A stretch of DNA of 64,000 nucleotides from a bacterium (GTDB lineage Bacteria; Patescibacteriota; Minisyncoccia; CAIUEV01): positions 12,495 through 76,494 of the forward strand of contig JAJXZR010000029.1 in NCBI GenBank assembly GCA_021779915.1, in the 5' to 3' direction. Positions 1,064-57,128 of the stretch are shown piece after piece. The notes under the pieces were generated by a model. It was not told where the DNA came from. It made no database searches and saw only the letters and a list, made by a program, of their open reading frames with translations. The first letter of the stretch is position 1; each line of letters begins with the position of its first letter. The position numbers and the translations under genes were made by a program.

Positions 1064-1462
1064 ATGGAAATTCCGTCGAACAAAACTCTTTATGTGATTG
1101 TTGGTGTTTTGGGTGTTGTTATAGTTGTCTTACTAATTGCTTTACTTATTTTAAAAAAACCTCAAGGAAGTAGTCTTTCTGAGGTGAATAAAATAAATAA
1201 TGTTACAGATCCTAATGCCGGGAAAACGTTAGAAGAACTTACCACAGCTCCTGATAACAGTTCCAATACAAATGATGCCCCTCAAACTAATGAAGAATTA
1301 CAAAAAATGATTTCTGCTCCTCCACCCAAAAATTCATCAGGAGAGAATAAAAATAAAGTGAAGACAGAAAACATTGGTACGGAACCTCTAAACATCCCAA
1401 AAGAAGAACAGTCAATGAGCAAAGAACTTCAAGACAGCCTGACAGCGCCGAGTCGGGAATAA
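1064..1462 (+). CDS. hypothetical membrane-anchored protein with a low-complexity Ser/Asn/Pro-rich tail
   Basis: single N-terminal TM helix; low complexity; no recognisable domain. Confidence 0.3.
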   Translation: MEIPSNKTLYVIVGVLGVVIVVLLIALLILKKPQGSSLSEVNKINNVTDPNAGKTLEELTTAPDNSSNTNDAPQTNEELQKMISAPPPKNSSGENKNKVKTENIGTEPLNIPKEEQSMSKELQDSLTAPSRE

Positions 1463-1567
1463 AATAACTTGCATCATCCCGATTTGTATTCAAAACCTAT
1501 TTTTATTTTCTTTCTCTCGACTAAACTATTTATTCAGGCTAATCTTCGCTTAAAGTAAAGAAATTAA

Positions 1568-2845: not shown

Positions 2846-4000
2846 ATGCGTACTTCCTATTCTTCTCTCAACAATTTTAAAACCTGCCCTCTTAAATATA
2901 AATACAAGGAAATTGACAAAATCAAAGGGAAACAAACCGCAATCCTCGCTTTTGGGAATTTGATGCATAAAACGCTCCGGTTTATTTACACTCCCACTGC
3001 TCATGGTTTTCCTACTAAAGAAGAAGCGATAAATTTTTTCGGACAGAATTGGAAACAGGAAATTTTAATCAAGGAAGGTGAAGAAAAAGGGTATTTTGAA
3101 GACGGGATCAAAATTTTGAGCAACTATATTGATTCCAAAGACGATGCGGAGAGAAACCAAGTGATTGCGCTTGAACACCATTTCAACATTAAAATCGGAG
3201 AACACGACTTGGAAGGATTTATTGACCGAATAGACAGAACTAAAGAAGGTTTTGAGATTATTGATTACAAAACCAGCCAAAAAATTCCCCCTGAAAAAGA
3301 AATTGAGAATGACTTGCAACTCAGTATCTATCTGCGAGCGTTCATCAATGAATGGCCTTCCCTCTTCAAAGAAGTCAAAGAAACTGACAAAATCAAACTA
3401 ACTCTCTATTTTTTGAGACACGACATAAAACTCTCGGCTACTCGAACTAAAAAAGATTTAAAAGATATCGACGAGAAAATTACCGAGCTTATTAATGCAG
3501 TTGAGGAGGCAAAAAAAAATAATAAATTTGATCCGTTCCCTTCTAATCTTTGTGGTTGGTGTGATTATCAGGAAATATGTCCTGTTTGGTCGCACAAATT
3601 CAAACCCGTTTCAAAGGAGCTTGAGGAAAAAGAAATTCAAGAAATAAGTCAAAAGTTTATCAGTCTGCGAGCCAAGAAAAAAGAAATCGAAGGGGAAATC
3701 AGAGAAGTTCAAGAAAAAATTAACAAGTATTTTACCGATACCAAATTGGAGCAGTTTTTCACGGATTTTGGAAGCATTTTAAAGTCGCCTCGCAAAACTT
3801 ACTCTTACAATCCAATCAAGATAGCTGAAATAATAAGACAAATAGGCAAAGACCCGATTTCAGTTATGAAAGTGGACTCTCGGGCTTTAACCGGTCTGAA
3901 AGCAGGATTAGAAAGAGAACAAAAAAAGATGATTGAAGAGGCGAAAGAGTTGGAGAGAGAAGGGTTTGTATTGGTGGTGAAGGGGGATAAGAAAGTTTAA
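2846..4000 (+). CDS. PD-(D/E)XK nuclease superfamily protein (RecB/Cas4-like) with C-terminal Cys cluster and K/E-rich coiled-coil tail
   Basis: RecB/Cas4-like N-terminus (CPLKYKY...), D..E.K-type core (IDRID...IIDYKTS) and CGWCDYQEICPVW cysteine motif. Confidence 0.45.
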   Translation: MRTSYSSLNNFKTCPLKYKYKEIDKIKGKQTAILAFGNLMHKTLRFIYTPTAHGFPTKEEAINFFGQNWKQEILIKEGEEKGYFEDGIKILSNYIDSKDDAERNQVIALEHHFNIKIGEHDLEGFIDRIDRTKEGFEIIDYKTSQKIPPEKEIENDLQLSIYLRAFINEWPSLFKEVKETDKIKLTLYFLRHDIKLSATRTKKDLKDIDEKITELINAVEEAKKNNKFDPFPSNLCGWCDYQEICPVWSHKFKPVSKELEEKEIQEISQKFISLRAKKKEIEGEIREVQEKINKYFTDTKLEQFFTDFGSILKSPRKTYSYNPIKIAEIIRQIGKDPISVMKVDSRALTGLKAGLEREQKKMIEEAKELEREGFVLVVKGDKKV

Positions 4001-6564: not shown

Positions 6565-7107
6565 TTACACTTGTTTCTCCTCTCCTTCCGTCGTCACCCT
6601 TCCTCCTTGCCACTGACCTCGATAAAGGTTTGTTTCACCTTTAACTTCTTGGAAAGTAATATGAACAATTCTTGATCCAAGGGCAATTTTAATATTTTTC
6701 CCTCCAAGGTTACAGAGAGCAAAAGTCAGTTTTCCTTGATAGCCAGGAGAAACGGCACCATTAAAAAGTGCAATTCCCGAGCGAAAAAGAGTGGTACGTG
6801 AAACGATGAAAGCAATGAGATCCTGAGGTAAATTAACTGATTCTACGGTAGTAATGAGATAATATTTTCCAGGGTTAAATTCAAAAAAAGTTTCCTCACT
6901 TCCTTCTTTAAACTCCGCTATTTTTTTTAAATCGGGAGTATCACGATTCTCAACCCCTAAAAACCCGCTTCCCTCTAATTCATAAATCTCACCCATTCGA
7001 AGGTCAAAACCCGCTCCCTCGGGATTACTAAGTTCTCTCTCACAAAGCCCTTCCACTAATTTTTTTTCTTTTACTAGTTGTAATAAGCTATCAACACCGA
7101 GAATCAT
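6565..7107 (-). CDS. dcd: dCTP deaminase (dUTPase fold)
   Basis: 180 aa dUTPase-like beta-barrel protein with Dcd-like motifs. Confidence 0.65.
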   Translation of the reverse strand: MILGVDSLLQLVKEKKLVEGLCERELSNPEGAGFDLRMGEIYELEGSGFLGVENRDTPDLKKIAEFKEGSEETFFEFNPGKYYLITTVESVNLPQDLIAFIVSRTTLFRSGIALFNGAVSPGYQGKLTFALCNLGGKNIKIALGSRIVHITFQEVKGETNLYRGQWQGGRVTTEGEEKQV

Positions 7108-7210
7108 GATTCTTATTTAAGATTTAGATTACTTAGTTATTAAATAATAGATTTATAGGGAGGCAAAGGATACCTAATTTTATACATTCCAAACAAGATG
7201 GGGCTATGGT

Positions 7211-7347: not shown

Positions 7348-8838
7348 ATGGAAAAACAACCAAGTTGGAAAGTCATAATTGGAATGGAAGTACATGTTCA
7401 GCCAAAAACGGAAAGCAAGATGTTTTGCGAGTGCAAAAACGATCCTTTTTGCAAAGATCCGAATATTCACACTTGTCCGGTGTGTATGGCTCTGCCAGGA
7501 AGTTTGCCGGTGGCTAATGAAAAAGCGATTGAAGAAATTATCAAGCTGGGGGTCGCTCTCAATTCAAAAATAGCTTCTTATAGTTGTTTTGCCAGAAAAA
7601 GTTATTTTTATCCCGATCTCCCCAAGGGTTATCAAATCAGTCAATACGATAAGCCATTTTGTCAGGGAGGAGAACTTTCTGTAAACGGTAAAAAGATTAA
7701 AATCACCCGTATTCATCTGGAAGAAGATGCAGGAAAAAATTTCCATCCCAAAGGAACCGATTACACTCTGGTAGATCTAAACAGAGCCGGTGTGCCACTT
7801 ATTGAGCTGGTAACCGAACCGGATATCGAAAGTGCTGAAGAAGCCAAGCTTTTTTGTCAGGAATTGCAATTAGTTTTGCGCTACTTAAAAATTTCCGATG
7901 CTGATATGGAAAAAGGTCAGATGCGGTGCGAAGCCAACATTTCTTTAGTTCCGAAGGGAACTTTAGAGAAGGACAAGCTTTCTGGAACCAAAGTCGAAGT
8001 TAAAAATCTCAATTCTTTTAAAGCGGTGGAGAGAAGTATTGAATTTGAAATAAAAAGACAATCAAGAATTCTCGAAAGAGGAGAGAAAGTGGTAGCGGAA
8101 ACTCGCGGTTGGAGCGAAGGAAAACAAGGAACAGTGAGTCAAAGGAGCAAGGAGGAAGCCAGTGAATACCGCTACTTCCCCGAACCCGACCTGCCTCCTA
8201 TTCTTGTTGATCCGAAGGACGTTGAAAAACTGAGAGATAATTTACCCGAGCTTCCCCAAGAATTTAGAAAAAGGCTGAGAGACGAATATAAACTGGCTCC
8301 AAGCGCAATCGAGGCTTTTACTTGCGATAAAAACTTGGGAAACTATTTTGAAGAGGCTGGGAGTGAACTTCGCGCCTGGTGGGAAGATACTTCCAAAGAA
8401 AAGTTTTCTAAAGATATTTATCAACTACTCGCTAATTACTTGATAACGGAAATTAAAAAATATTTAAGTGTCAGCAAAACAGACATAAAAGATCTTCTGG
8501 TTACTCCTGAAAATCTAGCAGAGCTCATTGTTATGCTTTATGAAAACAAAATAAACTCTTCTGCCGCTCAAACCATTCTAGCAAAAATGCTTGAAAAGGG
8601 AAGCGACCCAGATCAGATTGCTAAAGAATTGGATCTTCTTCAAATATCCGACAATAGCGCACTCACAGAAATTGTAGAAAAGGTTTTAAGCAATAATCCT
8701 CAAGCTATTGAGGATCTAAAAAGCGGTAAGGAACAAATTTTACAATACCTCATCGGCCAAGTAATGAAAGAAACCAGAGGAAAAGCCAACCCAAAAGTTG
8801 TGGATGATATGATCAGAGAGAAGATATTTGGAAAATAG
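7348..8838 (+). CDS. gatB: Asp-tRNA(Asn)/Glu-tRNA(Gln) amidotransferase subunit B
   Basis: N-terminal VIGMEVHVQ motif and C-terminal GatB/YqeY domain; 496 aa. Confidence 0.9.
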   Translation: MEKQPSWKVIIGMEVHVQPKTESKMFCECKNDPFCKDPNIHTCPVCMALPGSLPVANEKAIEEIIKLGVALNSKIASYSCFARKSYFYPDLPKGYQISQYDKPFCQGGELSVNGKKIKITRIHLEEDAGKNFHPKGTDYTLVDLNRAGVPLIELVTEPDIESAEEAKLFCQELQLVLRYLKISDADMEKGQMRCEANISLVPKGTLEKDKLSGTKVEVKNLNSFKAVERSIEFEIKRQSRILERGEKVVAETRGWSEGKQGTVSQRSKEEASEYRYFPEPDLPPILVDPKDVEKLRDNLPELPQEFRKRLRDEYKLAPSAIEAFTCDKNLGNYFEEAGSELRAWWEDTSKEKFSKDIYQLLANYLITEIKKYLSVSKTDIKDLLVTPENLAELIVMLYENKINSSAAQTILAKMLEKGSDPDQIAKELDLLQISDNSALTEIVEKVLSNNPQAIEDLKSGKEQILQYLIGQVMKETRGKANPKVVDDMIREKIFGK

Positions 8839-8851
8839 AGGCTGTTTTTCT

Positions 8852-8924
8852 GGGCTCGTAGCTTAGTTGGTAGAGCGCCGCGTTTGCAACGCGGAGGTCA
8901 GGGGTTCGAATCCCCTCGAGTCCA
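8852..8924 (+). tRNA. tRNA-Ala (anticodon TGC)
   Basis: cloverleaf with G3:U70 in the acceptor stem, anticodon loop tTTGCAa, T-arm GGTTCGAATCC; no encoded CCA. Confidence 0.85.
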
Positions 8925-8953
8925 CTAGAGGAAGAGCGGTCGCCTGAGGCGAC

Positions 8954-8984
8954 AGGTCAGGGGTTCGAATCCCCTCGAGTCCAC
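8954..8984 (+). repeat. 31-bp perfect direct repeat of the 3' end (T-arm plus acceptor 3' strand) of tRNA-Ala; att-site-like remnant or tRNA pseudo-fragment
   Basis: AGGTCAGGGGTTCGAATCCCCTCGAGTCCAC occurs at 8895-8925 and again at 8954-8984; the second copy lacks a 5' acceptor strand and D-arm. Confidence 0.7.
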
Positions 8985-9087
8985 ACAGCCTCTAAACAAA
9001 CAAGGACAATTTTTAAAACTCTAAAGAACTTTAACAATTTGGAAGTCTGAAAAGGAAAAGTAGACTCTAAAATCTCAACAAGACATC

Positions 9088-9120
9088 GACACCAGCTTAA
9101 ATTAGGCTGGTGTTTATTTT
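9088..9120 (+). terminator. rho-independent terminator downstream of tRNA-Ala
   Basis: CACCAGC...GCTGGTG hairpin followed by a T-run. Confidence 0.5.
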
Positions 9121-9214
9121 TCTCTTGACAAGATTGTTATTATATCTAAACTAAACAGTTCTATTAAATTAGGAAAAGCACTTTAAAAATTAGAAAAATG
9201 GGAGGTAACGATTT

Positions 9215-9943
9215 ATGGGAGCTTTGAAACACGAACATGAAAGGGATCACTACAGGGTTGATAATCTCGTGATTTTCAAACCTCAGAGACAAAACTCGGA
9301 CGCTTGGTTGTTGGAAGTTGGAGATTTGGTTCTTCTAAAAACCAGCTTTAACCGTAAATTAGGAAAAATTGGGTTCGCTCCAAGCTTCCCTTCTTCTGAT
9401 GCTATTTTTGACAGTATGGAAAGTTCCATCAGAGTTTTCCGCCCCCTGAATAATAATTTTTCTTTGGGAGAGAAAGGAGAGGAATGGCTGGTCAGGGTTG
9501 AGACAGTGAAGGTGAACAAGTGGAAAAGAACAAGCGATGACAGAATTTTTGTTTATATTGGGGTGAAAGTTTCGGAGCGAGTAGAGGTTACAGTAAGACA
9601 TTATTATGTCTCAGAGAACCTTTACACGGAAACGATTCAGAGTGGCACTTCAATCATTTCAAGCAGGATTGTCAGGAATCCCAAGGTGGAGGAAAAGTAT
9701 TATCTCGATGGAACGCTAGTGTCCAAAGGGATGACAATTTTTTCTCCTGAAGGAGAACGGCTGGCTGTCAATCGTATTGAGTCCGAGAGCAAAGAAGGGT
9801 ACTTCCAAAGAAGAGTCGCAGAAATAAAGGACTCTCCTTTTGCAGGAAAGCTCGGACAACCGGCAGATGTCATCGGGAGGGAGTTAAAATCATTTCCTAA
9901 GTTCCCTAGCGAAGAAAAATTTGGGTTTAATTTGCATTACTAG
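9215..9943 (+). CDS. hypothetical protein
   Basis: 242 aa ORF with a strong GGAGG RBS; no recognisable motif; own terminator at 9961-10000. Confidence 0.4.
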   Translation: MGALKHEHERDHYRVDNLVIFKPQRQNSDAWLLEVGDLVLLKTSFNRKLGKIGFAPSFPSSDAIFDSMESSIRVFRPLNNNFSLGEKGEEWLVRVETVKVNKWKRTSDDRIFVYIGVKVSERVEVTVRHYYVSENLYTETIQSGTSIISSRIVRNPKVEEKYYLDGTLVSKGMTIFSPEGERLAVNRIESESKEGYFQRRVAEIKDSPFAGKLGQPADVIGRELKSFPKFPSEEKFGFNLHY

Positions 9944-9960
9944 TAAAAGTACAAAACAAT

Positions 9961-10000
9961 TGCCCGTTGGTTAAAAATCTAATCAACGGGCTTTTTTATT
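9961..10000 (+). terminator. rho-independent terminator
   Basis: GCCCGTTG...CAACGGGC hairpin plus TTTTTT. Confidence 0.55.
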
Positions 10001-10110
10001 TTAAAATAAATAAAAAGCCAGAAAAATTCGACCAGTACTTATTTATGAGTTAGAAATTTTTAAACTGGTTCCTTAAAAATTTGATTGCTTCAAATGAAAG
10101 GAGGAAGGAA

Positions 10111-10884
10111 ATGTTAGGATTTATGGTTCGAAAAAAGTGGAAGCGAGGTGCTTCTAAAGTAGGTAAAATAAGTGAAACGGTTGATTTTTCAAAAAGCGAA
10201 TTAGAAAAATGTTTTGATCAGCAGACGACAAAAGTTTTAAACCCCCAGACTTATCCTGAAGCGGAATTCAAAATCTCCGTTCTGGCGTCTTTATTGGAAC
10301 TGCTCAGAAAAAAGATTCCTGAAAAAATTCCCTGTGAAGAGAGTAACATTCCTATTCTGCTTGTTTTGGGAAACTTTTTACCACTTGACGAGCAGCTTAA
10401 GGGAATGCAATTTCGGGAGAAAGACAGAGAATGTTCTTTACACCCCTATTTGGATCACAAATATCTTCCCAGGTCTCCTCTTTCGTATACTAACACCGAC
10501 CTTCCTTATTTGCTTTTTGATGTTGAACCCGGGGAAAAAACCAAAGGGATTTCGGAAGAAAAATGCCGAAAAATTTTTTCAGTTGTGGAACGTTTAGGGC
10601 TAGATATTTACGAAGTTGTGGCCCTCATCACTCAATTTTCGAAATACTGCTTAAATTACTCCGGATCACTTGAAACATATGTGATTTCAAACCCGGGAAG
10701 TATGACGAGCAGAAAAAGCGATATCTTTGTGCACCAAGAACACGTTATTTTTCCTCCGATATGGGGTAGAAAAAGAGTGGATTGGTATCCAATAAAGATC
10801 TTGGCTGGAGAGAAGGAAAACGACGAGCTGATCGAAGAAAACCGGTGCTGGCCTTCGTGCAAAAAGAGATTGTTTATGAGTTAA
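10111..10884 (+). CDS. hypothetical protein
   Basis: ORF preceded by an AAGGAGGAAGG RBS; start chosen at the ATG at 10111 rather than the upstream ATG at 10081; no recognisable domain. Confidence 0.4.
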   Translation: MLGFMVRKKWKRGASKVGKISETVDFSKSELEKCFDQQTTKVLNPQTYPEAEFKISVLASLLELLRKKIPEKIPCEESNIPILLVLGNFLPLDEQLKGMQFREKDRECSLHPYLDHKYLPRSPLSYTNTDLPYLLFDVEPGEKTKGISEEKCRKIFSVVERLGLDIYEVVALITQFSKYCLNYSGSLETYVISNPGSMTSRKSDIFVHQEHVIFPPIWGRKRVDWYPIKILAGEKENDELIEENRCWPSCKKRLFMS

Positions 10885-11011
10885 TTTTGCAAAAAGCGTT
10901 TTTTCCTTGACAAAACTGATTAAACTTGGATAATAACGGGTTCGTTAATAATTTGGAAATATTAGGAAGAATTAGGTTTGGGGAGAGCAATTTAGCTCGA
11001 GGAGGGTTTTT

Positions 11012-11215
11012 ATGGTATCTTCAAATGAGGTTGAACAGGCAAAAATTAGAGTTCTGTTCGAGGAGGCGAAAAAATCTGAAAATGCAGCGATTGCAGTTTG
11101 CAACCGGTGTATCCGTCAGAAAGAGTTTGATGTCGCCGAAGAAATTCGGGACAATTTTGTTCCCGAGTATGATTTGGAAAAGAAGATACAAGAACTTGTG
11201 GGTAATTTGAATTAG
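11012..11215 (+). CDS. small hypothetical protein
   Basis: 67 aa ORF followed by a terminator at 11287-11327. Confidence 0.3.
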   Translation: MVSSNEVEQAKIRVLFEEAKKSENAAIAVCNRCIRQKEFDVAEEIRDNFVPEYDLEKKIQELVGNLN

Positions 11216-11286
11216 TGGGGTTGTGATGAAATAACGAACGAAGGAGGATTGGCTGAGCCTTCAAAGCAAAAGTAAGCCGACACAAA

Positions 11287-11327
11287 ACCCGCGATTAAAC
11301 AATCGTGGGTTTTATTTTTTTCTGTGT
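11287..11327 (+). terminator. rho-independent terminator
   Basis: CCCGCGATT...AATCGTGGG hairpin plus a T-run. Confidence 0.55.
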
Positions 11328-11355
11328 CATCCCTGACCCCGAGCCGGGATGACAG
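11324..11355. repeat. solo hairpin unit of the GTGTCATCC...GATGACA repeat family (H4)
   Basis: GTGTCATCCCTGACCCCGAGCCGGGATGACAG; palindromic; same termini as the long elements. Confidence 0.6.
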
Positions 11356-11479
11356 GTACACTACAATGAGTCTTTGTTTATAAAATTCAGCTTAAAAGCT
11401 GGACAAACTTGTATTTGTTTAATAGAAAGGGACGGAGAAAAAGAACTTTGAAGTTTCCATAAAAGGAGGAATATGGAAC

Positions 11480-11662
11480 ATGAAAAAAGGAAAAAACAAT
11501 CCTTCGTCCGTTGGATACATTTGTCCAAACTGTGGATTTAGGCCTAAAAAGCCCAAACATCTAGTCTGTCTCGAATGCAATCATGAATTGGAGAGAGTAA
11601 TAGATATTAATCCGGAAGAACTCTACAAATTAGCTTTAAGGAGGGAAAAAAATGGAAATTGA
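11480..11662 (+). CDS. small zinc-ribbon protein
   Basis: CPNCGF...CLEC four-cysteine motif; AAGGAGG RBS upstream. Confidence 0.35.
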   Translation: MKKGKNNPSSVGYICPNCGFRPKKPKHLVCLECNHELERVIDINPEELYKLALRREKNGN

Positions 11663-11855
11663 GGGAAAAAAAGTAAAAGTTCTGAAGATTTTTGGCCAAA
11701 TTGGTTGTGGATTGGTAGACGGAGGCGATTTTGTCAATGTTTATCCAAGAAACGTTGAGCGGGAAAAACTATTTGAAGCTCTAAAAGAAGCCGAAAAAGA
11801 AGGACTGGAAGTCATCCAAGACTGCTATGGCAAACAATTTGGAGTTCAATTCTAA
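11652..11855 (+). CDS. small hypothetical protein
   Basis: 67 aa ORF overlapping the previous stop; terminator at 11878-11912. Confidence 0.3.
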   Translation: MEIEGKKVKVLKIFGQIGCGLVDGGDFVNVYPRNVEREKLFEALKEAEKEGLEVIQDCYGKQFGVQF

Positions 11856-11877
11856 TTTTCTACCGTTAATTTAACAA

Positions 11878-11912
11878 AAGACAGGCGCAAAAACCTGTCT
11901 TTTTTCTTTGGA
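11878..11912 (+). terminator. rho-independent terminator
   Basis: AGACAGGCGCAAAAACCTGTCT hairpin plus TTTTTTC. Confidence 0.55.
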
Positions 11913-11993: not shown

Positions 11994-13775
11994 ATGTACA
12001 TCACCAACAAACAATTAAAAAACTTTTTGCTCGAATCGGAGATTATATCGCCTGATACTTTGGATCAGGTGGAAAAAGAACTTCCAACCCAAGATGATAA
12101 ATTGGGAGAATTGTTGGTTCAAAAGGGCTTGCTTGAAGAAGAACAGCTTCGTAAAACCTATGCCTATATTTCTGGAATTCCTTTTGTAAACTTGGAGAAT
12201 CAATTTGTTGCCAAGGAAATTCTCAATATTATTCCCGAACCAATTGCGCGCAAGCACAATATAGTCGCTTTTGAAAGGGACGGAAGCAAAATCAAAGTGG
12301 CGATGCTTGATCCTCGAGATCTTCAAACGATTGATTTTATCAGAAAAAAAACTCAAAGCAAGATTCTGCCGTGCCTTACTTCAGAAAAATCAATTTCCCA
12401 TATTCTAACCTTGTACCAAAAGTCTTTGAAAGCTGAATTTGGCGATATTATTGAAGAAAGCGTTAAAATTTCTTCCGTTATGAATGAAGCAAGAGGGGTC
12501 GGTACAACTTCTGATGGGGGAGAGAAAGAAGAAGAAACACTAAAGAAAACTGCTGAAGAATTACCCGTTATAAAGATTATAGACGTACTCCTCAAGCATG
12601 CCATTTTGCAACAGGCCAGCGATATCCACATTGAACCCATCGAAAAAGAGGTTATTGTAAGATACAGGATTGATGGCATTTTGCACGACGTAATGTTTCT
12701 TCCTAGGGAGATATTGTCCGCAGTTATCGCCAGAATAAAAGTACTTTCCGATTTGAAGCTCGATGAGCACAGACTCCCTCAAGACGGAAGATTTAAACTG
12801 GAGACTCAAGATTATAAATTTTCTTTCCGAGTTTCGATTCTTCCTATCATCGATGGAGAAAAGATTGTTATTCGTCTTCTCAATGAAACGAGTAAAGGAT
12901 TAACTTTAGAGCAATTGGGCTTTCGAGGGAAAGCACTCGAGGTGATCCAAAAGAACATTCATCGTCCGCACGGAATGCTCTTGGTTACCGGACCGACCGG
13001 ATCAGGCAAAACCACCACCCTCTATACCATGATGGATATTTTGAATACCAACCAAGTGAATATTAGCACTGTAGAAGACCCAATTGAATACCGAATGCAA
13101 AGAATCAATCAAACTCAGGTTAATTCAAAAGTGGGTCTTACGTTTGCAGTTGGGCTTAGGTCTCTTTTACGCCAAGACCCGGACATCATTATGGTTGGAG
13201 AAATCAGAGACGAAGAGACGATGCATATTGCGATTAATGCTGCTATGACTGGGCATTTAGTGCTTTCAACCTTGCATACCAATTCTGCCGCTGCTACAAT
13301 GCCACGGCTCATGGACATGGGAGCTGAGCCGTTTCTTTTAGCCTCCACTTTGAACGTTGCCATTGCCCAAAGATTGGTGCGAAAAATCTGTCCCAATTGC
13401 CAGGAGGATTATTTAATGGGACAAAACGATGTTGAACTTTTGAAGAAAAAAGTTGATGCGGATAAGATTTTTGAAATTTTAAAGCAAGAGAAGATTATTC
13501 CTGAAACAGCTAGGGGTTTTGAGGAAGTGGCTTTTGCCAGAGGCAAAGGTTGCGTAAGATGCAACAACACCGGATACAAGGGAAGACTGGGCATTTATGA
13601 GGTGATCGAGGTTGATGACGATCTTCGAGCACTTATTTCCGAAAGAAAAGATTCTGATACAATCAACGCCAAAGCAGTGGAAAATGGCACGATCACTATG
13701 CTTCAAGATGGATTTATCAAAGCAATCCAAAAAGTTACTACAATCGAGGAAATTTTAAGAGTTACACAAGAATAA
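11994..13775 (+). CDS. pilB: type IV pilus assembly / type II secretion ATPase (GspE/PilB family)
   Basis: T2SSE_N domain, Walker A GPTGSGKTTTLY, Walker B DPDIIMVGEIRD, His box GHLVLSTLHTN, tetracysteine CPNC...CVRC. Confidence 0.85.
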   Translation: MYITNKQLKNFLLESEIISPDTLDQVEKELPTQDDKLGELLVQKGLLEEEQLRKTYAYISGIPFVNLENQFVAKEILNIIPEPIARKHNIVAFERDGSKIKVAMLDPRDLQTIDFIRKKTQSKILPCLTSEKSISHILTLYQKSLKAEFGDIIEESVKISSVMNEARGVGTTSDGGEKEEETLKKTAEELPVIKIIDVLLKHAILQQASDIHIEPIEKEVIVRYRIDGILHDVMFLPREILSAVIARIKVLSDLKLDEHRLPQDGRFKLETQDYKFSFRVSILPIIDGEKIVIRLLNETSKGLTLEQLGFRGKALEVIQKNIHRPHGMLLVTGPTGSGKTTTLYTMMDILNTNQVNISTVEDPIEYRMQRINQTQVNSKVGLTFAVGLRSLLRQDPDIIMVGEIRDEETMHIAINAAMTGHLVLSTLHTNSAAATMPRLMDMGAEPFLLASTLNVAIAQRLVRKICPNCQEDYLMGQNDVELLKKKVDADKIFEILKQEKIIPETARGFEEVAFARGKGCVRCNNTGYKGRLGIYEVIEVDDDLRALISERKDSDTINAKAVENGTITMLQDGFIKAIQKVTTIEEILRVTQE

Positions 13776-21044: not shown

Positions 21045-22391
21045 TTGCAAAAATTCAAACAAATTCTATTTTTTCTAACTATCTTATCTCTTCCCATTGA
21101 GCTGGCTTTTGTTAAAATTGGTGGTAGGGATATTAAATTCTGGTTTATTTTTGCCGTTTTGGGGGGTGTTGTTGTTTTGGCGGATTGGTGGAAGAAGGGA
21201 ATAAAAGAAATAACCAGTTTGAAAAGTTTTTATCTGGGAATTGCTACGATATTTTTTTCTTGCATTGCCCTGGTCGATTCGCCTGTTAAATCTTTCTCGA
21301 TCCAGCAACTGGTAATTCTTATCTCGCTGATTACGCTGGCTATGTTTGTTGAAAAATATTCCAAGAGATGCAAAAAAAAAATTCCCTCAGGACTTGCCAT
21401 TGGCATGATCTTAAGCTCAATTCTGGCTATTTGGCAAAACATTGCTTTTAATCTAGGAAATCAAAGTCTTGAGATTATGGCGGCAAGACCCAATGCGCTT
21501 TTTCCGGAACCCGATTGGCTAGGGTTTTATTTGTCTTTAGGGCTGGTGTTCTTCGTTGTTTCAACAAGAAATAAACAGTTACCGGAATTTTTAAAAAACA
21601 AATTTTCTTTGAGCATTTTTTGGCTGTTAAATATTACGGCACTTATCATTACAGTCGCTAGAGCGAGTTGGTTGGCTTTTATTTTGGAAGCTGGCGTCAC
21701 ATCCTTGCTATTAGCCACTTCTCTTTACCTTAGAAAAAAAGATTTAAAAGAAGCTCTAACTGCCTTTTTAAAAAAAGGGGGGGCTTTTGTTGCTCTGATT
21801 TTAATTTCTATTGCCATTATCCAAATCTTCCAATTAACGCGCTTCAATCTTTTTGATCGAATGAGAAGTATTTTTTTTAAACAACATATTGTCACTATGG
21901 CTTATAATCCGATTACGAAAGAGAGCTTAAAAATAAATTTGGAAGAAAAAGAGACTTACATTCAAAAAGGATTTGAAATTAAAGATGCTTATGTGCCCGA
22001 TGAAAATGTTATAAGTCGAGAAGATAAGGCAGTAAGTGCGTGGGACATTATCAAGAAGCATCCGATCCTAGGAAACGGATTGGGAATTATTCTCATTGAA
22101 ACCAACTATCAACACAACGCCAATAATCTCTTTCTTGAATGGTGGGCAAGCGCCGGTATTGGAGGGTTGATGGCAATTACCGGAACCCTTGTTTATTTTA
22201 TTGTCAAAGGATTGACTTTTATTAAAAATGAGAAGCGAAAATCCATTCTGCTAATTGCCGGAACCTTGGGATTTATCGCACTCAATCTCTTTAACGCTTC
22301 GATACTCCTCGCTTTTGCATGGTTTTTTCTAGGATATCTTTTTTCGCTTACCCACGTGTCATCCCGGCCTCCGAGCCGGGATCCAGGATGA
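21045..22391 (+). CDS. O-antigen ligase/polymerase-like integral membrane protein
   Basis: polytopic protein with a Wzy_C-like loop (TVARASWLAF) and a periplasmic insert; the C-terminal 11 aa and the stop codon lie inside repeat H5. Confidence 0.4.
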   Translation: MQKFKQILFFLTILSLPIELAFVKIGGRDIKFWFIFAVLGGVVVLADWWKKGIKEITSLKSFYLGIATIFFSCIALVDSPVKSFSIQQLVILISLITLAMFVEKYSKRCKKKIPSGLAIGMILSSILAIWQNIAFNLGNQSLEIMAARPNALFPEPDWLGFYLSLGLVFFVVSTRNKQLPEFLKNKFSLSIFWLLNITALIITVARASWLAFILEAGVTSLLLATSLYLRKKDLKEALTAFLKKGGAFVALILISIAIIQIFQLTRFNLFDRMRSIFFKQHIVTMAYNPITKESLKINLEEKETYIQKGFEIKDAYVPDENVISREDKAVSAWDIIKKHPILGNGLGIILIETNYQHNANNLFLEWWASAGIGGLMAITGTLVYFIVKGLTFIKNEKRKSILLIAGTLGFIALNLFNASILLAFAWFFLGYLFSLTHVSSRPPSRDPG

Positions 22392-24254: not shown

Positions 24255-24344
24255 AAGATATATTTAATAAAGACTAATCCAGCTATTTTTGAGCGAGTAA
24301 TGGGAGTCGACCCCGTCTTTTAGCCTTGCTTGCCCACCGAAATG

Positions 24345-24416
24345 AGCGGTAGACCGGGATCGAACCGGCGATCTTCTGCTTGGGAAGCAGACGTTCTACC
24401 ACTGAACTACTACCGC
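24345..24416 (-). tRNA. tRNA-Gly (anticodon CCC)
   Basis: rc is GCGGTAGTAGTTCAGTGGTAGAAC...TCTGC-TTCCCAA-GCAGA...GGTTCGATCCCGGTCTACCGCT; anticodon loop tTCCCAa. Confidence 0.8.
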
Positions 24417-24623: not shown

Positions 24624-27600
24624 ATGTCTCTTTCGAAAAAAGTTAGTGGCGGAAAACAGCAAGATTTTGAGGAAATTGCCCTTCGTGATACAACCAGAAG
24701 ATTAAGCAGGGCTTCAGAAGAGGAACAGGCTGCCATTCGAGCGGCTGGGTCCGGTCTTCCTTACCTTGATCTCAATATTTTTCCCGTAGGGGCGGAAACT
24801 TTAAGCATTCTTCCCGAAGAAGTGGCTCGACTAGGAGAAATTACCGTTATCCAGAAAGCGGGACGAGAAATTAAGGTAGGAGTTTTTGACCCCAACAACA
24901 AAACCACTCAAGAAGTTTTGGAAAAGTTGGAAAAAGACGAAGGATATCGTATTAAACTTTACATCGTTTCCAGAACCAGTCTTAAAAGAACTTGGGATAG
25001 ATATAAGCACATTAATCTAGCTTCTTCCCTGGAAGATATGATGCTGACACTTTCTGGCAAGGATTTAGAAAAATTTGAGAACGACATTAAAGAGCTTGTT
25101 GACCTAAAGAAAAGAATCCGGGAACTTCCAACCACCGAAGTATTAAACGTCATTATCGCCGGTGCAATCAAGATGGATGCTAGCGATATCCACACCGAAC
25201 CTCAAAAAGATGATGTTCGCATCCGTTATCGTCTGGATGGAGTTTTGCATGACATTGTCCATATTCCTTACAATTACTACCCTTACGTCCTTTCTCGAGT
25301 GAAAATGCTTTCTGGACTCAAACTCAATATCAAAGACCGTTCACAAGACGGACGTTTTTCCATCAAAACTAACAAGTACGAGATTGACGTTCGTATTTCA
25401 ATCCTTCCGGGAAATTATGGAGAAAACATAGTAATGAGGCTTCTCAACCAAAACGAAACTGGATTCACTTTGGAAGATTTAGGTCTTCGCGGAAGAGCCG
25501 CTGAACAACTGGCTATTCAAATGGCCAAACCTAACGGAATGATTCTTAATACCGGACCTACCGGTTCTGGAAAAACCACCACTCTTTATGCTTGTATCCG
25601 CAAATTGAATTCTCCCGACACAAAAATAATCACTATTGAAGACCCGATAGAATATCGTTTGGCAGGTGTATCCCAAACTCAAGTTCACAAGGAAAGAGGA
25701 TATGATTTTGCTAATGGTCTTCGAGCGATTGTTAGACAAGACCCTGATGTAATTTTGGTTGGGGAAATCAGAGACGAAGAAACGGGAGATATTGCAGTCC
25801 ACGCCTCTTTAACGGGACATCTGGTGCTTTCCACCCTTCACACTAACAGCGCCGCCGGAGCTATTCCTCGTTTGATTGATTTGGGAATCCGGCCTTCTCT
25901 TATCACTCCTTCGATTAATTGTATTATTGCTCAAAGGCTAGTTCGAAAACTTTGTCCTTTTTGCCGGGAAGAATATGTTCCTGCTCAGGAGACTTTAGAA
26001 AGCATGAGTCGCTTCTTGTCGATTATTTCCCCTAAAGCGCGAGTAGAAGTTCCGAAAAATATCACCACTCTTTATCGGGCAACGGGCTGTCCAAAATGCC
26101 ACGGATTGGGATATAAAGGCAGAATCGGAATATTTGAAATTTTTGAAGTCACTCCTTCTATTGAGAAACTAGTTCTAGAAATGGCTCCTGCTTCCGATCT
26201 TTTGGCTGCTTCTATGGAAGAAGGGATGGTAACAATGCTTCAAGACGGAATCCTTAAGGCCGCCGAAGGAATGACTTCGATGGAAGAGGTTGAAAGAGTG
26301 ACGGGATCCGGCCAATACCTGCAAGAAATTTACGAAAAAATTATGGTGCAACTTCTTTCACTCCAGCTAAAAATCACCGCAAAGCAAGGCGAAGAAGTGG
26401 TTGGTTGCGGATATGAAGCAAAAAATATCGCTGACTACATTCAAAAAGCATCAAATAAAGATATTCTTAATTATATTGTGGCTGGAGGGCTTTCTTTCGA
26501 TGCGGGAGATATCCACATGGAACCGCAAGGAGATAGAATAAAAATCCGCTATCGGATTGACGGTATTTTGGAAGATATTACTGATATAAAGGCAAGCGAC
26601 TATTTGCCGGTTCTTTCTCAAATAAAACTACTGGCCGGACTCAAAACCGATTCCCACGCTGCCGTTCAAGACAGTCGTTTTGGGATCAGTCTCGAAACAC
26701 CGATCCGCGACATCCCTAATAAACAAATAGACGTGAGAGTTTCCATTATTACTGGAGGGTATGGAGAAACAGTGGTGATGAGACTTTTGCATAAATCAGC
26801 TCAAGCCCTGGAAGTAGAAAAAATCGGTTTCCGACCACAACTACTGGACAAACTATTACGCGAAATTGAAAAACCCAACGGAATGATTCTTAACACAGGA
26901 CCAACCGGTTCTGGAAAAACTACCACTTTGTACTCTCTTCTTAATCGATTGAATAAACCCGAAGTTAAAATCATCACTGTGGAAGACCCAATTGAGTATC
27001 GCTTGGCGGGAATATTGCAAACTCAGGTTTCAGTTGATGAAGGATACAATTTTGCCGACGCTCTGCGAGCGCTCCTTCGCCAAAATCCGGATATTATGAT
27101 GATTGGGGAAATTAGAGATGAAGAAACGGGAAAAATTTCTATCCAAGCCTCTTTGACAGGGCACTTGGTACTTTCCACTTTGCATACCAACAATGCCGTA
27201 GCTTCTATCCAACGTATGATCAATATGAACATCGACCCCACTGACATCGCCACCGCTACCAACGCCATGATGGCTCAAAGATTGGTCAGAAAGCTTTGTC
27301 CTGTTTGCAAAAAGAAAGTTCCTATTACTCCCGATAACAAAAAAAGATTGGAAGAAATTATTGCCGGAATTCACCCCTCGACTGGAATTTCAATTCCAAG
27401 CAACACAGTTGACTTTCTATATGAACCAGTTGGCTGTTCAGAGTGTAAAAACATAGGTTTCAAGGGAAGATTTCCCGTCGCAGAACTAATGCTAATGACT
27501 CCGACTCTCGAAGAAATGGTAGCCCACTTTGCCATCACTTCTGAAATTGAAAAACAAGCCATCCAAGAAGGAATGCTCACTATGACCCAAGACGCAGCCC

Positions 27601-27659
27601 TCCGCATCGCCGACGGAGAAACCAGTCTGGCCGAAGCAGCGAGATTGACAGAGCTATAA
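24624..27659 (+). CDS. tandem-fused double GspE/PilB-family ATPase (T2SSE_N domain plus two complete ATPase cores)
   Basis: two Walker A motifs GPTGSGKTTTLY at about aa 312 and 754, two Walker B DPDxIxxGEIRDEET boxes, two His boxes GHLVLSTLHTN, two tetracysteine motifs. Confidence 0.8.
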   Translation: MSLSKKVSGGKQQDFEEIALRDTTRRLSRASEEEQAAIRAAGSGLPYLDLNIFPVGAETLSILPEEVARLGEITVIQKAGREIKVGVFDPNNKTTQEVLEKLEKDEGYRIKLYIVSRTSLKRTWDRYKHINLASSLEDMMLTLSGKDLEKFENDIKELVDLKKRIRELPTTEVLNVIIAGAIKMDASDIHTEPQKDDVRIRYRLDGVLHDIVHIPYNYYPYVLSRVKMLSGLKLNIKDRSQDGRFSIKTNKYEIDVRISILPGNYGENIVMRLLNQNETGFTLEDLGLRGRAAEQLAIQMAKPNGMILNTGPTGSGKTTTLYACIRKLNSPDTKIITIEDPIEYRLAGVSQTQVHKERGYDFANGLRAIVRQDPDVILVGEIRDEETGDIAVHASLTGHLVLSTLHTNSAAGAIPRLIDLGIRPSLITPSINCIIAQRLVRKLCPFCREEYVPAQETLESMSRFLSIISPKARVEVPKNITTLYRATGCPKCHGLGYKGRIGIFEIFEVTPSIEKLVLEMAPASDLLAASMEEGMVTMLQDGILKAAEGMTSMEEVERVTGSGQYLQEIYEKIMVQLLSLQLKITAKQGEEVVGCGYEAKNIADYIQKASNKDILNYIVAGGLSFDAGDIHMEPQGDRIKIRYRIDGILEDITDIKASDYLPVLSQIKLLAGLKTDSHAAVQDSRFGISLETPIRDIPNKQIDVRVSIITGGYGETVVMRLLHKSAQALEVEKIGFRPQLLDKLLREIEKPNGMILNTGPTGSGKTTTLYSLLNRLNKPEVKIITVEDPIEYRLAGILQTQVSVDEGYNFADALRALLRQNPDIMMIGEIRDEETGKISIQASLTGHLVLSTLHTNNAVASIQRMINMNIDPTDIATATNAMMAQRLVRKLCPVCKKKVPITPDNKKRLEEIIAGIHPSTGISIPSNTVDFLYEPVGCSECKNIGFKGRFPVAELMLMTPTLEEMVAHFAITSEIEKQAIQEGMLTMTQDAALRIADGETSLAEAARLTEL

Positions 27660-27702: not shown

Positions 27703-27844
27703 GTGTCATCCCGGGCTTGACCCGGGATCCAGTTAGACTAACAGAATGTTATTTTAACGTGTATTTGTAAAAAACTAAACAAAAGAACGTTTTGTTAGAC
27801 TAACACTATTTTCCTGGATCCCGGCTCAGAGGCCGGGATGACAC
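27703..27844. repeat. MITE-like element, hairpin-TIR family, short subtype (H6)
   Basis: GTGTCATCCCGGGCTTGACCCGGGATCCAG ... CTGGATCCCGGCTCAGAGGCCGGGATGACAC; internal ttagactaaca modules. Confidence 0.75.
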
Positions 27845-33789: not shown

Positions 33790-33961
33790 GTGTCACCCTA
33801 ACTCCACCTGTCATTCCCGCGAAGGCGGGAATCCAGGAAGATTTTATTAAATTAATAGAATGTTATTTTAGTTATTTTCTTAACTATAGAACCCAAACAA
33901 TCATTCTTTTAGTCTAATAAAGTATTAGTTTACTGGATTCCCGCCTTCGCGGGAATGACAC
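33790..33961. repeat. MITE-like element, hairpin-TIR family, short subtype (H7)
   Basis: GTGTCA...TGTCATTCCCGCGAAGGCGGGAATCCAGG ... CTGGATTCCCGCCTTCGCGGGAATGACAC; compensatory hairpin variant. Confidence 0.75.
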
Positions 33962-36850: not shown

Positions 36851-37095
36851 GTGTCATCCCGGGCTTGACCCGGGATCCAAGAGAATAGAAAATTGCTCTA
36901 ATTAACCTAATTATACCCACCGCCTAAGGCGGGATCCCGCTTTGCGGTGATAATTGACCTAAAAAAGCACCAAACAATAAAAAATAAATCTTGAAAATTG
37001 GTTCTTGGCATTTTATTTAGAACAATTAGATCAATTAGGGTAATTAGAATAATTGGCGAGTCTAACTAGATCCCGGGTCAAGCCCGGGATGACAC
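36851..37095. repeat. MITE-like element, hairpin-TIR family, long subtype (H8), inverted relative to H1
   Basis: GTGTCATCCCGGGCTTGACCCGGGATCCAAG ... CTAGATCCCGGGTCAAGCCCGGGATGACAC; internal aattagggtaattagaataatt module. Confidence 0.75.
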
Positions 37096-44759: not shown

Positions 44760-44899
44760 GTGTCATCCCGGGCTTGACCCGGGATCCAGGAGAGTGGTAT
44801 TAGTCTAATAAAATGTTAGTTTGTTCAATCTCTTACAATGCACATTAAAATAACATTCTGTTAGTCTAACTGGATCCCGGGTCAAGCCCGGGATGACAC
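44760..44899. repeat. MITE-like element, hairpin-TIR family, short subtype (H9)
   Basis: GTGTCATCCCGGGCTTGACCCGGGATCCAGG ... CTGGATCCCGGGTCAAGCCCGGGATGACAC; nearly perfect. Confidence 0.8.
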
Positions 44900-55221: not shown

Positions 55222-55433
55222 GTGTCCTCCCGGGCTTGACCCGGGATCCAGTTAAACTCACTAAATTATTCTAATTGCTCTAATTAGCCTAATTATTCTA
55301 AACAAAATACCAAGAACCAATTAAAAAATTTTTGTTTATTGGTACTTAGTGCTTTTTAGAATAATTAGTATAATTAGGTTAACTAGAGTAATTCTCTACC
55401 CGCCTGGATCCCGGGTCAAACCCGGGATGACAC
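55222..55433. repeat. MITE-like element, hairpin-TIR family, long subtype (H12)
   Basis: GTGTCCTCCCGGGCTTGACCCGGGATCCAG ... CTGGATCCCGGGTCAAACCCGGGATGACAC; internal ctaattagcctaattattctaaacaaaata module. Confidence 0.8.
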
Positions 55434-56904: not shown

Positions 56905-57128
56905 ACAATTTCCAAACAAGATACAATTTTCCAAATTTGAAAAACCAAACAACTTCACGTGTCATCCCGGCCCCTGAGCCGGGATCCAGAAAAATAATAT
57001 TTTAAGAGTCTAATATTATTCTCCTGGATCCCGGGTCAAGCCCGGGATGACACACTAAAAGGGTACTATTTGGAGTTTGTGATGCTTGAATTTGTTTGGA
57101 ATTTGTTTCTTGTTTCTTGGAATTTTTT
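56905..57128. repeat. composite element (H13): hairpin-TIR core (56959-57053) flanked by outer ccaaacaag / cttgtttcttgg arms
   Basis: GTGTCATCCCGGCCCCTGAGCCGGGATCCAG ... CTGGATCCCGGGTCAAGCCCGGGATGACAC. Confidence 0.75.

Follow-up and report, generated by a model that had tools for sequence, protein, structure and literature searches.

The analysed stretch of DNA (hereafter the window) comprises 64,000 nt of contig JAJXZR010000029.1 from a member of Patescibacteriota (assembly GCA_021779915.1, contig positions 12,495 to 76,494), and this work concerns the flank of its tRNA-Ala(UGC) gene, where the 3' end of the gene is repeated exactly a short distance downstream. The 59-bp unit that starts at the first base after the gene (8926-8984) is a pseudo-copy of tRNA-Ala, arranged head to tail with the gene and truncated at its 5' end, and corresponds to tRNA positions of approximately 13-74. 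The repeat is not the edge of a genomic island, and it is not linked to the cassette of five open reading frames (ORFs) downstream, because the unit occurs, and turns over, without this cassette in a sister species. With a probability of about one half, the unit represents a partial tandem pseudo-tRNA whose 31-bp repeat is kept by gene conversion and which is lost by recombination between the repeats.

Pseudo-copy downstream of tRNA-Ala

The tRNA-Ala(UGC) gene starts 13 nt after the stop codon of gatB, so there is no space outside gatB for an upstream promoter of its own. Its acceptor stem has a G3:U70 pair, and the terminal CCA is not encoded. The repeated 31-mer, AGGTCAGGGGTTCGAATCCCCTCGAGTCCAC, contains the variable loop, the T arm, the 3' strand of the acceptor stem, the discriminator, and one additional base, and it is identical in both copies (Table 1). 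In a shuffle control, 0 of 100 shuffles gave a match. An earlier description of the locus, made by a model from the letters and a list of ORFs (hereafter the sequence-only reading), had reported this perfect repeat correctly, with a gap of 29 bp; the measured spacer is 28 bp long (8926-8953). It had also proposed a search for a distal copy as a second attachment site, and no third copy of the 31-mer was present in the 64-kb window when up to three mismatches were allowed.

The repeat was reproduced in an independent ENA assembly from the same organism (L081), which has both copies 59 bp apart and differs from the window by 1 mismatch in 19.9 kb. A Logan contig from another run (L082) starts exactly inside copy 2, as expected from a break of the assembly graph at a 31-bp repeat when k=31 is used. 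An assembly artefact was ruled out by these independent assemblies together with a homologous unit in another species.

Homology of the spacer to the tRNA extends beyond the exact repeat and in register. The unit begins with TAGAGGAAGAGCG, derived from the D arm and homologous to AAAGAGATTAGAGCG of the sister assembly L114, and continues with a GC (guanine-cytosine) hairpin that occupies the exact slot of the 17-nt anticodon arm and represents a "closed" anticodon loop. The acceptor 3' strand of copy 2 has no partner 5' acceptor strand. As both this strand and an anticodon loop are missing, the pseudo-copy cannot be a tRNA, and neither ARAGORN nor the Rfam tRNA model called one at 8926-8984. 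A terminator-like hairpin downstream (9088-9114) would close the transcript of gatB, tRNA-Ala, and the pseudo-copy, so the pseudo-copy is probably located within the 3' trailer of tRNA-Ala. For the transcript of tRNA plus trailer, the predicted fold gave z = -4.0.

Other identities of the unit were considered and rejected. At the Rfam gathering score, tRNA-Ala was the only match; the only other hit, tmRNA_permuted, scored 22.7 bits and thus stayed below its gathering score of 47. This match is due to the T arm alone, no downstream 5' acceptor strand is present, and ARAGORN predicted no transfer-messenger RNA (tmRNA), so a permuted or two-piece tmRNA was excluded. A split or intron-containing tRNA was excluded as well, since the unit overlaps parts of the tRNA instead of supplementing them and no group I intron was matched. 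The idea that the hairpin loop (CUGAG/CUUAG) holds an anticodon of suppressor or Leu-like type was dismissed as unsupported, as the arm is 2 nt short of a 7-nt loop.

Table 1. Features of the tRNA-Ala flank, the remainder of the window, and the related loci (positions refer to the window unless another locus is named).
Feature	Position	Strand	Basis or remark
gatB (context)	7348..8838	+	Pfam GatB_N 2.3e-111, GatB_Yqey 2.8e-43
tRNA-Ala(UGC), functional	8852-8925	+	ARAGORN; Rfam RF00005 75.1 bits at 8852-8924
Repeat copy 1, tRNA positions 44-74	8895-8925	+	exact 31-mer match
Start of pseudo-copy, aligned to tRNA positions ~13-26 (D loop, 3' half of D stem)	8926..8938	+	pairwise alignment
GC hairpin GTCGCC-TGA-GGCGAC, 6-bp stem and 3-nt loop	8939..8953	+	hairpin scan
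Repeat copy 2: variable loop, T arm (8959-8975), acceptor 3' strand	8954-8984	+	exact 31-mer match
Intrinsic-terminator-like hairpin	9088-9114	+	follows the tRNA trailer
ORF1, 242-aa orphan	9215-9943	+	promoter-like site 9125-9152; terminator 9962-9991
ORF2, 257-aa orphan (267 aa from TTG at 10081)	10111-10884	+	ORF list
ORF3, 67-aa orphan	11012-11215	+	promoter-like site 10907-10934 (11/12 matches); terminator 11284-11313
Solo hairpin CTGTGTCATCCC...GGGATGACAGGTAC, inside the cassette	11322-11358	.	like the inverted-repeat ends of the MITE-like repeats
ORF4, 60 aa, CxxC...CxxC, zinc-ribbon-like	11480-11662	+	Pfam zinc-ribbon matches all below threshold
ORF5, 67 aa, overlaps ORF4 as one unit	11652-11855	+	terminator 11876-11903
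PilB/GspE-type ATPase, first housekeeping gene past the cassette	11994..13775	+	Pfam T2SSE 3.6e-132
Single MITE-like hairpin	22361-22382
MITE-like hairpin pairs	27708-27839, 33813-33956, 36856-37090, 44765-44894, 55228-55428, 56964-57048
~140-nt element	L113 4288-4427	+
~140-nt element	L113 6503-6650	-
~140-nt element	L126 5533-5672	-
~140-nt element	L112 315-457	+
~140-nt element	L100 3980-4132, 3809-3961	-

The locus in related genomes

Relatives were taken from a large protein collection and represent a family-level clade with 65-78% GatB identity. The closest is a sister species, also of Patescibacteria, available as four assemblies (L097, L113, L114, and L115); its GatB (P0009) is 78% identical and its gatB DNA 75% identical to those of the window. 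GatB and PilB of the window are singletons in 90% clusters. In GTDB, the nearest GatB is 57% identical, and tRNA-Ala was found after gatB in 0 of the 37 loci scanned (of 80), so that these loci gave no information on synteny.

The tRNA-Ala gene is identical at 74 of 74 nt between the window and all four assemblies of the sister species. In L114, the order core, AAAGAGATTAGAGC, GGTCGCCTTAGGCGAC, core was found directly after the identical tRNA-Ala. The 61-bp unit of L114 matches that of the window in about 55 of 61 positions; the 31-mer is identical (31/31), the D-arm remnant is conserved in part, and the hairpin GTCGCC-TTA-GGCGAC has the same stems and one changed base in the loop. The sequence immediately downstream of the unit is unalignable between the window and L114, and the genes that follow in the sister species, coding for a 409-aa repeat protein and a metallophosphatase, are entirely unlike the cassette of the window. 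As the unit is shared while the downstream genes are unrelated, it is not tied to the five ORFs. The Rfam scan of the sister locus gave nothing above threshold. The sister species has, in addition, a 5' partial copy upstream of tRNA-Ala, in which nt 1-17 are identical and are followed by the same hairpin.

L114 and L115 agree fully (100%) in the 2574 + 1067 nt compared, and the 61-bp unit is the sole difference between them. The unit is absent also from L113 and L097, i.e., it is present in one of the four sister assemblies. It is thus gained or lost faster than point mutations accumulate, and such a fast turnover is expected from deletion between 31-bp direct repeats that are 30 bp apart. Another member of the clade, L116, has GatB 81% identical to that of the sister species and 75% identical to that of the window. 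Its single tRNA-Ala shows four differences and is without partial copies. The product of the gene right after this tRNA-Ala (L116, 10421-11065) has a domain of Tad4, an inhibitor of type I Thoeris (E = 1.3e-26); the gene is absent at the same place in the sister species.

The order of genes downstream of gatB differs in every relative with 69-78% GatB identity. The flank of tRNA-Ala is both prone to recombination and hypervariable, which is compatible with the sequence-only reading.

A parallel case was found in L126 (GatB 72%) at a tRNA-Met gene. Directly after this gene comes a copy whose D-arm part is nearly identical and in which the palindrome ATCCCGCCATGGCGGGAT replaces the anticodon arm and the last 31 nt at the 3' end are identical to the gene. 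The copy ends in CCA, whereas the tRNA-Met gene itself lacks it, and the 9-nt trailer TTCCAAAAG is duplicated too. This copy is a simple tandem duplicate of the tRNA-Met gene in which the anticodon loop is closed.

Further partial copies of tRNAs were seen in the clade. In L120 and L121 (14107-14503, minus strand), a copy of tRNA-Ala nt 1-17 is situated 320 nt upstream of the complete gene; an ORF for a 96-aa GIY-YIG nuclease (Pfam 1.7e-14) lies between them, and its stop codon overlaps the 5' end of tRNA-Ala. In L085 (approximately 1249-1480, minus strand), a complete tRNA-Ala is nested between the halves of a second, different tRNA-Ala-like gene in the order outer 5' half, 25 nt, complete tRNA-Ala, 30 nt, and outer 3' half, with the inner ends of the outer halves perfectly complementary over 11 bp (CACCCCGCACC / GGTGCGGGGTG). 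Evidently, tRNA genes in this clade are hotspots of recombination.

A conserved non-coding element of about 140 nt is located downstream of tRNA-Ala, tRNA-Met, and tRNA-His genes in several relatives (Table 1). It has an inverted T-arm-like segment at the 5' side and a conserved core, GGGGAAAAGTA...TTTCCCC, GCGACGTGAGA. Its 3' end duplicates the final 15-20 nt of the adjacent tRNA, with CCA included even where the gene lacks it, and the closing helix changes with the tRNA (covarying). The element had no match in Rfam, and nhmmer found none in the window.

Explanations of the unit

A direct repeat that spans a tRNA from the variable loop to the 3' end is a classical signature of integration (PMC9897764, PMC4383910), and the sequence-only reading had taken the two copies for attL/attR and the five ORFs for a possible decayed integrated element or cargo island. 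The copies enclose 28 bp of tRNA-derived DNA, and the cassette lies outside, downstream of both. In the literature, elements integrated between a complete tRNA gene and its partial copy have lengths of roughly 9-23 kb (PMC9897764). With the spacing of 28 bp and the cassette outside the copies, the classical attL/attR model fails on its defining geometry. No distal repeat of at least 10 nt was detected with blastn-short near 11.8-12.0 kb. As the earlier reading had said, no integrase remains: none was present in the precomputed Pfam annotation of the first 19.9 kb of the window, nor among 19 ORFs of 183-751 aa between 20 and 64 kb (ORFs above 800 aa and below 170 aa were outside that scan). Viral contigs in IMG/VR gave no exact match to the 31-mer, to the hairpin-plus-repeat junction, or to the hairpin when any loop base was allowed. 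The 24-mer of T arm and acceptor was shared by 30 metagenome loci, none of which had a second copy of it or an island between copies, and orphan copies of the 24-mer in L087, L095, and L108, which come from unrelated bacteria, had no adjoining integrase.

An island bounded by the tRNA repeat is therefore very improbable as an explanation of the five ORFs. They are indeed absent from every related locus examined and directly follow a tRNA, a solo hairpin of the type seen in miniature inverted-repeat transposable elements (MITEs) lies among them, and in another genome a 37%-identical relative of the 242-aa protein is encoded about 670 nt downstream of tRNA-Ala(CGC). However, both repeat copies are upstream of the cassette and no copy is at its far end, the sister species has the unit but not the cassette, the GC content is the same as that of the genome, and domains of phage, defence, or mobility were not found. 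Since gene order past gatB differs in every relative, the absence of the ORFs elsewhere reflects general flux and not a defined insertion. When presence and absence were compared among the relatives, the 61-bp unit itself varied, and the cassette was absent, but no relative exceeded 78% GatB identity. The sequence-only reading had named conserved synteny of the ORFs next to tRNA-Ala, with the repeat being a fragment of a tRNA pseudogene, as the outcome that would contradict it; the ORFs are absent in all relatives, so conserved synteny was not seen, and the repeat is such a fragment.

The preferred explanation, a partial tandem pseudo-tRNA, would start with a partial tandem duplication of the tRNA-Ala gene or with recombination with a tRNA-Ala-like paralog, and the anticodon stem-loop would have been replaced by, or remodelled into, the short GC hairpin. 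Gene conversion with the adjacent functional gene would keep the 31-bp block identical beside the non-homologous hairpin, and slippage or recombination between the 31-bp direct repeats would delete the unit. The unit would be passively co-transcribed in the 3' trailer of the tRNA as far as the terminator-like hairpin ending at 9114 and would probably have no separate function. Several observations weigh against this. The hairpin stems and the 31-mer are identical across a split of 78% in GatB and 75% in gatB DNA, over which the adjacent intergenic DNA has become unalignable; a neutral pseudogene should have decayed, and the expected decay is not what was observed. The hairpin has no second copy in the window, so its conservation cannot be explained by gene conversion and needs either selection or a recent horizontal spread of a module of tRNA-Ala plus unit. 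The Ala and Met cases independently gained a stable GC hairpin of similar length, which is not random decay, and this repeated closed-hairpin outcome suggests that the structure is constrained or that a specific mechanism is at work. Finally, the 5' partial copy with the same hairpin upstream of tRNA-Ala in the sister species is not explained by a single simple duplication.

The conservation of hairpin and 31-mer between species with unalignable flanking intergenic DNA speaks for a functional mimic of tRNA. The unit would then be an RNA or cis element under selection within the 3' trailer of tRNA-Ala; it could signal processing or stability, act as a decoy for an enzyme that binds T arms, or pair with the 5' acceptor strand of the tRNA. 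The same architecture at tRNA-Met of L126, with an encoded CCA that the gene lacks, is in favour of it, as are the ~140-nt elements of the relatives, which also end in the 3' end of a neighbouring tRNA and have a covarying closing helix, and the fold of the tRNA-plus-trailer transcript mentioned above. Such a role is nevertheless rather unlikely. The unit is dispensable in the population, as only one of four sister assemblies with identical flanks carries it, and it is absent from L116, whose GatB is nearer to that of the sister species than GatB of the window is. There are three instances only, with neither an Rfam family nor true covariation, and the predicted fold allows competition between the second acceptor strand and the genuine one, which would be a disadvantage and not a benefit.

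Conservation of the unit could also result from mobility: an integrative element that targets tRNA-Ala and has a tRNA-like attachment site would have recombined within the 31-bp block and then been deleted almost completely, with attL and attR left 28 bp apart, or a module of tRNA-Ala plus unit would have spread horizontally and replaced the resident gene. Besides the form of the repeat, this is suggested by the identity of tRNA-Ala in the window and the sister species, while L116, closer to the latter, differs at four positions; by the upstream partial copy of the sister species, which looks as if a resident gene had been displaced; and by the mobile-looking cargo at tRNA-Ala of relatives (the Tad4 protein in L116 and the GIY-YIG gene in L120). 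We consider it unlikely, as 28 bp contrast with the kilobases of known elements (9-23 kb, PMC9897764), two independent near-total deletions that leave homologous tRNA-derived DNA in two species are implausible, and the searches made revealed no integrase, matching viral contig, or distal site.

A broader proposal, which is speculative and improbable to a similar degree, is that Patescibacteria of this family have a class of selected mimics of tRNA 3' ends next to tRNA genes. These would act as RNAs (for example, as decoys of T arm or 3' end, or as processing modules) or as DNA landing sites for the exchange of tRNA cassettes between lineages, and the class would have two forms, namely the truncated copy with closed anticodon (window, sister species, and tRNA-Met of L126) and the ~140-nt elements. 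The identical tRNA-Ala of the window and the sister species, together with the tRNA nested in a pseudo-tRNA in L085, hint at the landing-site option.

Compared with known systems, the partial tandem pseudo-tRNA favoured here shares with the displaced tRNA fragments of islands and prophages (tyrosine-integrase attL/attR, Islander-type) the exact direct repeat of the 3' part and an intact functional gene. Unlike there, the DNA between the copies is 28 bp long instead of kilobases, is derived from the tRNA, and is accompanied by no integrase in the searches described; furthermore, the pseudo-copy as a whole is inherited in two species, and its turnover is independent. Tandem tRNA duplicates and pseudogenes are similar in head-to-tail orientation, homology that begins in the D arm and runs through the 3' end, lack of parts needed for function, and failure to be called by ARAGORN or Rfam, but here a perfect GC hairpin stands for the anticodon arm, the 3' 31 nt are identical over a deep split, and the arrangement recurs at tRNA-Met. 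From tRNA-like RNAs (the tRNA-like domain of tmRNA, bacterial YrlA, mascRNA-type signals for 3' end processing, and functional 3' external transcribed spacers of tRNA operons), which likewise present a mimic of T arm and acceptor strand in a tRNA-linked transcript, and of which tmRNA also has the anticodon arm substituted by another helix, the unit differs by the missing 5' acceptor strand and hence acceptor stem, and by the lack of an Rfam match.

The limits of genomic islands are commonly drawn at direct repeats of tRNA 3' ends, and an automated caller would mis-assign this flank as one. In the reduced genomes of Patescibacteria, which are already known for odd tRNA genes with group I introns (PMC13011429), a repeat of this kind can be part of nothing more than a 59-bp pseudo-tRNA, complete in itself and uninformative about the neighbouring genes. 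If conservation of the closed-anticodon hairpin does mean function, it would represent an undescribed family of tRNA-linked mimic RNAs or a mechanism of tRNA gene exchange.

Five-ORF cassette and other features of the window

The five ORFs are best described as an independent set of orphan genes specific to this lineage and situated in the hypervariable region past gatB and tRNA-Ala; nothing found connects them with the repeat. All five exist as the sequence-only reading had listed them, with ORF2 of 257 aa and not 258 aa. None had a match at threshold in Pfam, PHROGs, PADLOC, or NCBIfam, including families of defence, phage, or mobility proteins, and none had a homolog in any related locus examined. 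The GC content is 0.36-0.42 both inside and outside the cassette. Four terminator-like hairpins were predicted in the region, one after the tRNA trailer and three after ORF1, ORF3, and ORF5. A terminator for each segment, as had been claimed, thus holds for these three ORFs, while the 257-aa ORF has none of its own and ORF4 and ORF5 share one as a single unit.

A word search of 5.8e9 proteins with the 242-aa protein returned itself alone. Full phmmer, in turn, recovered 22 remote relatives, the best of them 45% identical, with conserved motifs in the alignment; on this basis ORF1 is a real gene of a small uncharacterised family. The protein has no relatives in Pfam or in PDB, where the profile search was empty. 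For the 257-aa protein, one homolog was found, 43% identical and encoded on a 905-bp contig. The structure prediction that the sequence-only reading had recommended was not informative, as AlphaFold2 models, computed from single-sequence or two-sequence input, had predicted local distance difference test (pLDDT) values of 34 for the 242-aa and 37 for the 257-aa protein and were unusable. The family of the 242-aa protein now has 23 clusters and can be used for structure prediction.

The 37%-identical relative of the 242-aa protein mentioned above (P0130) is encoded in L129 at 7774-8535, downstream of tRNA-Ala(CGC) at 7035-7108, in a neighbourhood of housekeeping genes. The family is thus located downstream of tRNA-Ala in two of the three contexts seen, and it may be recurrently associated with flanks of this gene.

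A family of MITE-like repeats is present in seven or more copies in the window (Table 1). Its elements are about 100-270 bp long and are bounded by inverted copies of GTGTCATCCCGGGCTTGACCCGGGATCCAG, with each end forming a GC hairpin. Hairpins of the MITE type occur in many related loci, and the palindrome in the "anticodon" of the tRNA-Met pseudo-copy of L126 resembles them. One MITE-like element is situated between dcd and gatB in L114 but not in L113.

A second homolog of the PilB/T2SSE-type ATPase is encoded at 24624-27659 (plus strand) and is 42% identical to the one that follows the cassette. It is located in a 1011-aa ORF adjoining tRNA-Gly (24344-24416, minus strand). About 5 kb upstream of the tRNA-Ala repeat, a 384-aa protein is encoded at 2846-4000 (plus strand), with a PD-(D/E)XK nuclease domain (3.7e-33), DUF2800, and a Mu Gam/Sipho_Gp157-like domain (TOTE conflict systems). 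This protein is phage-like or conflict-system-like.

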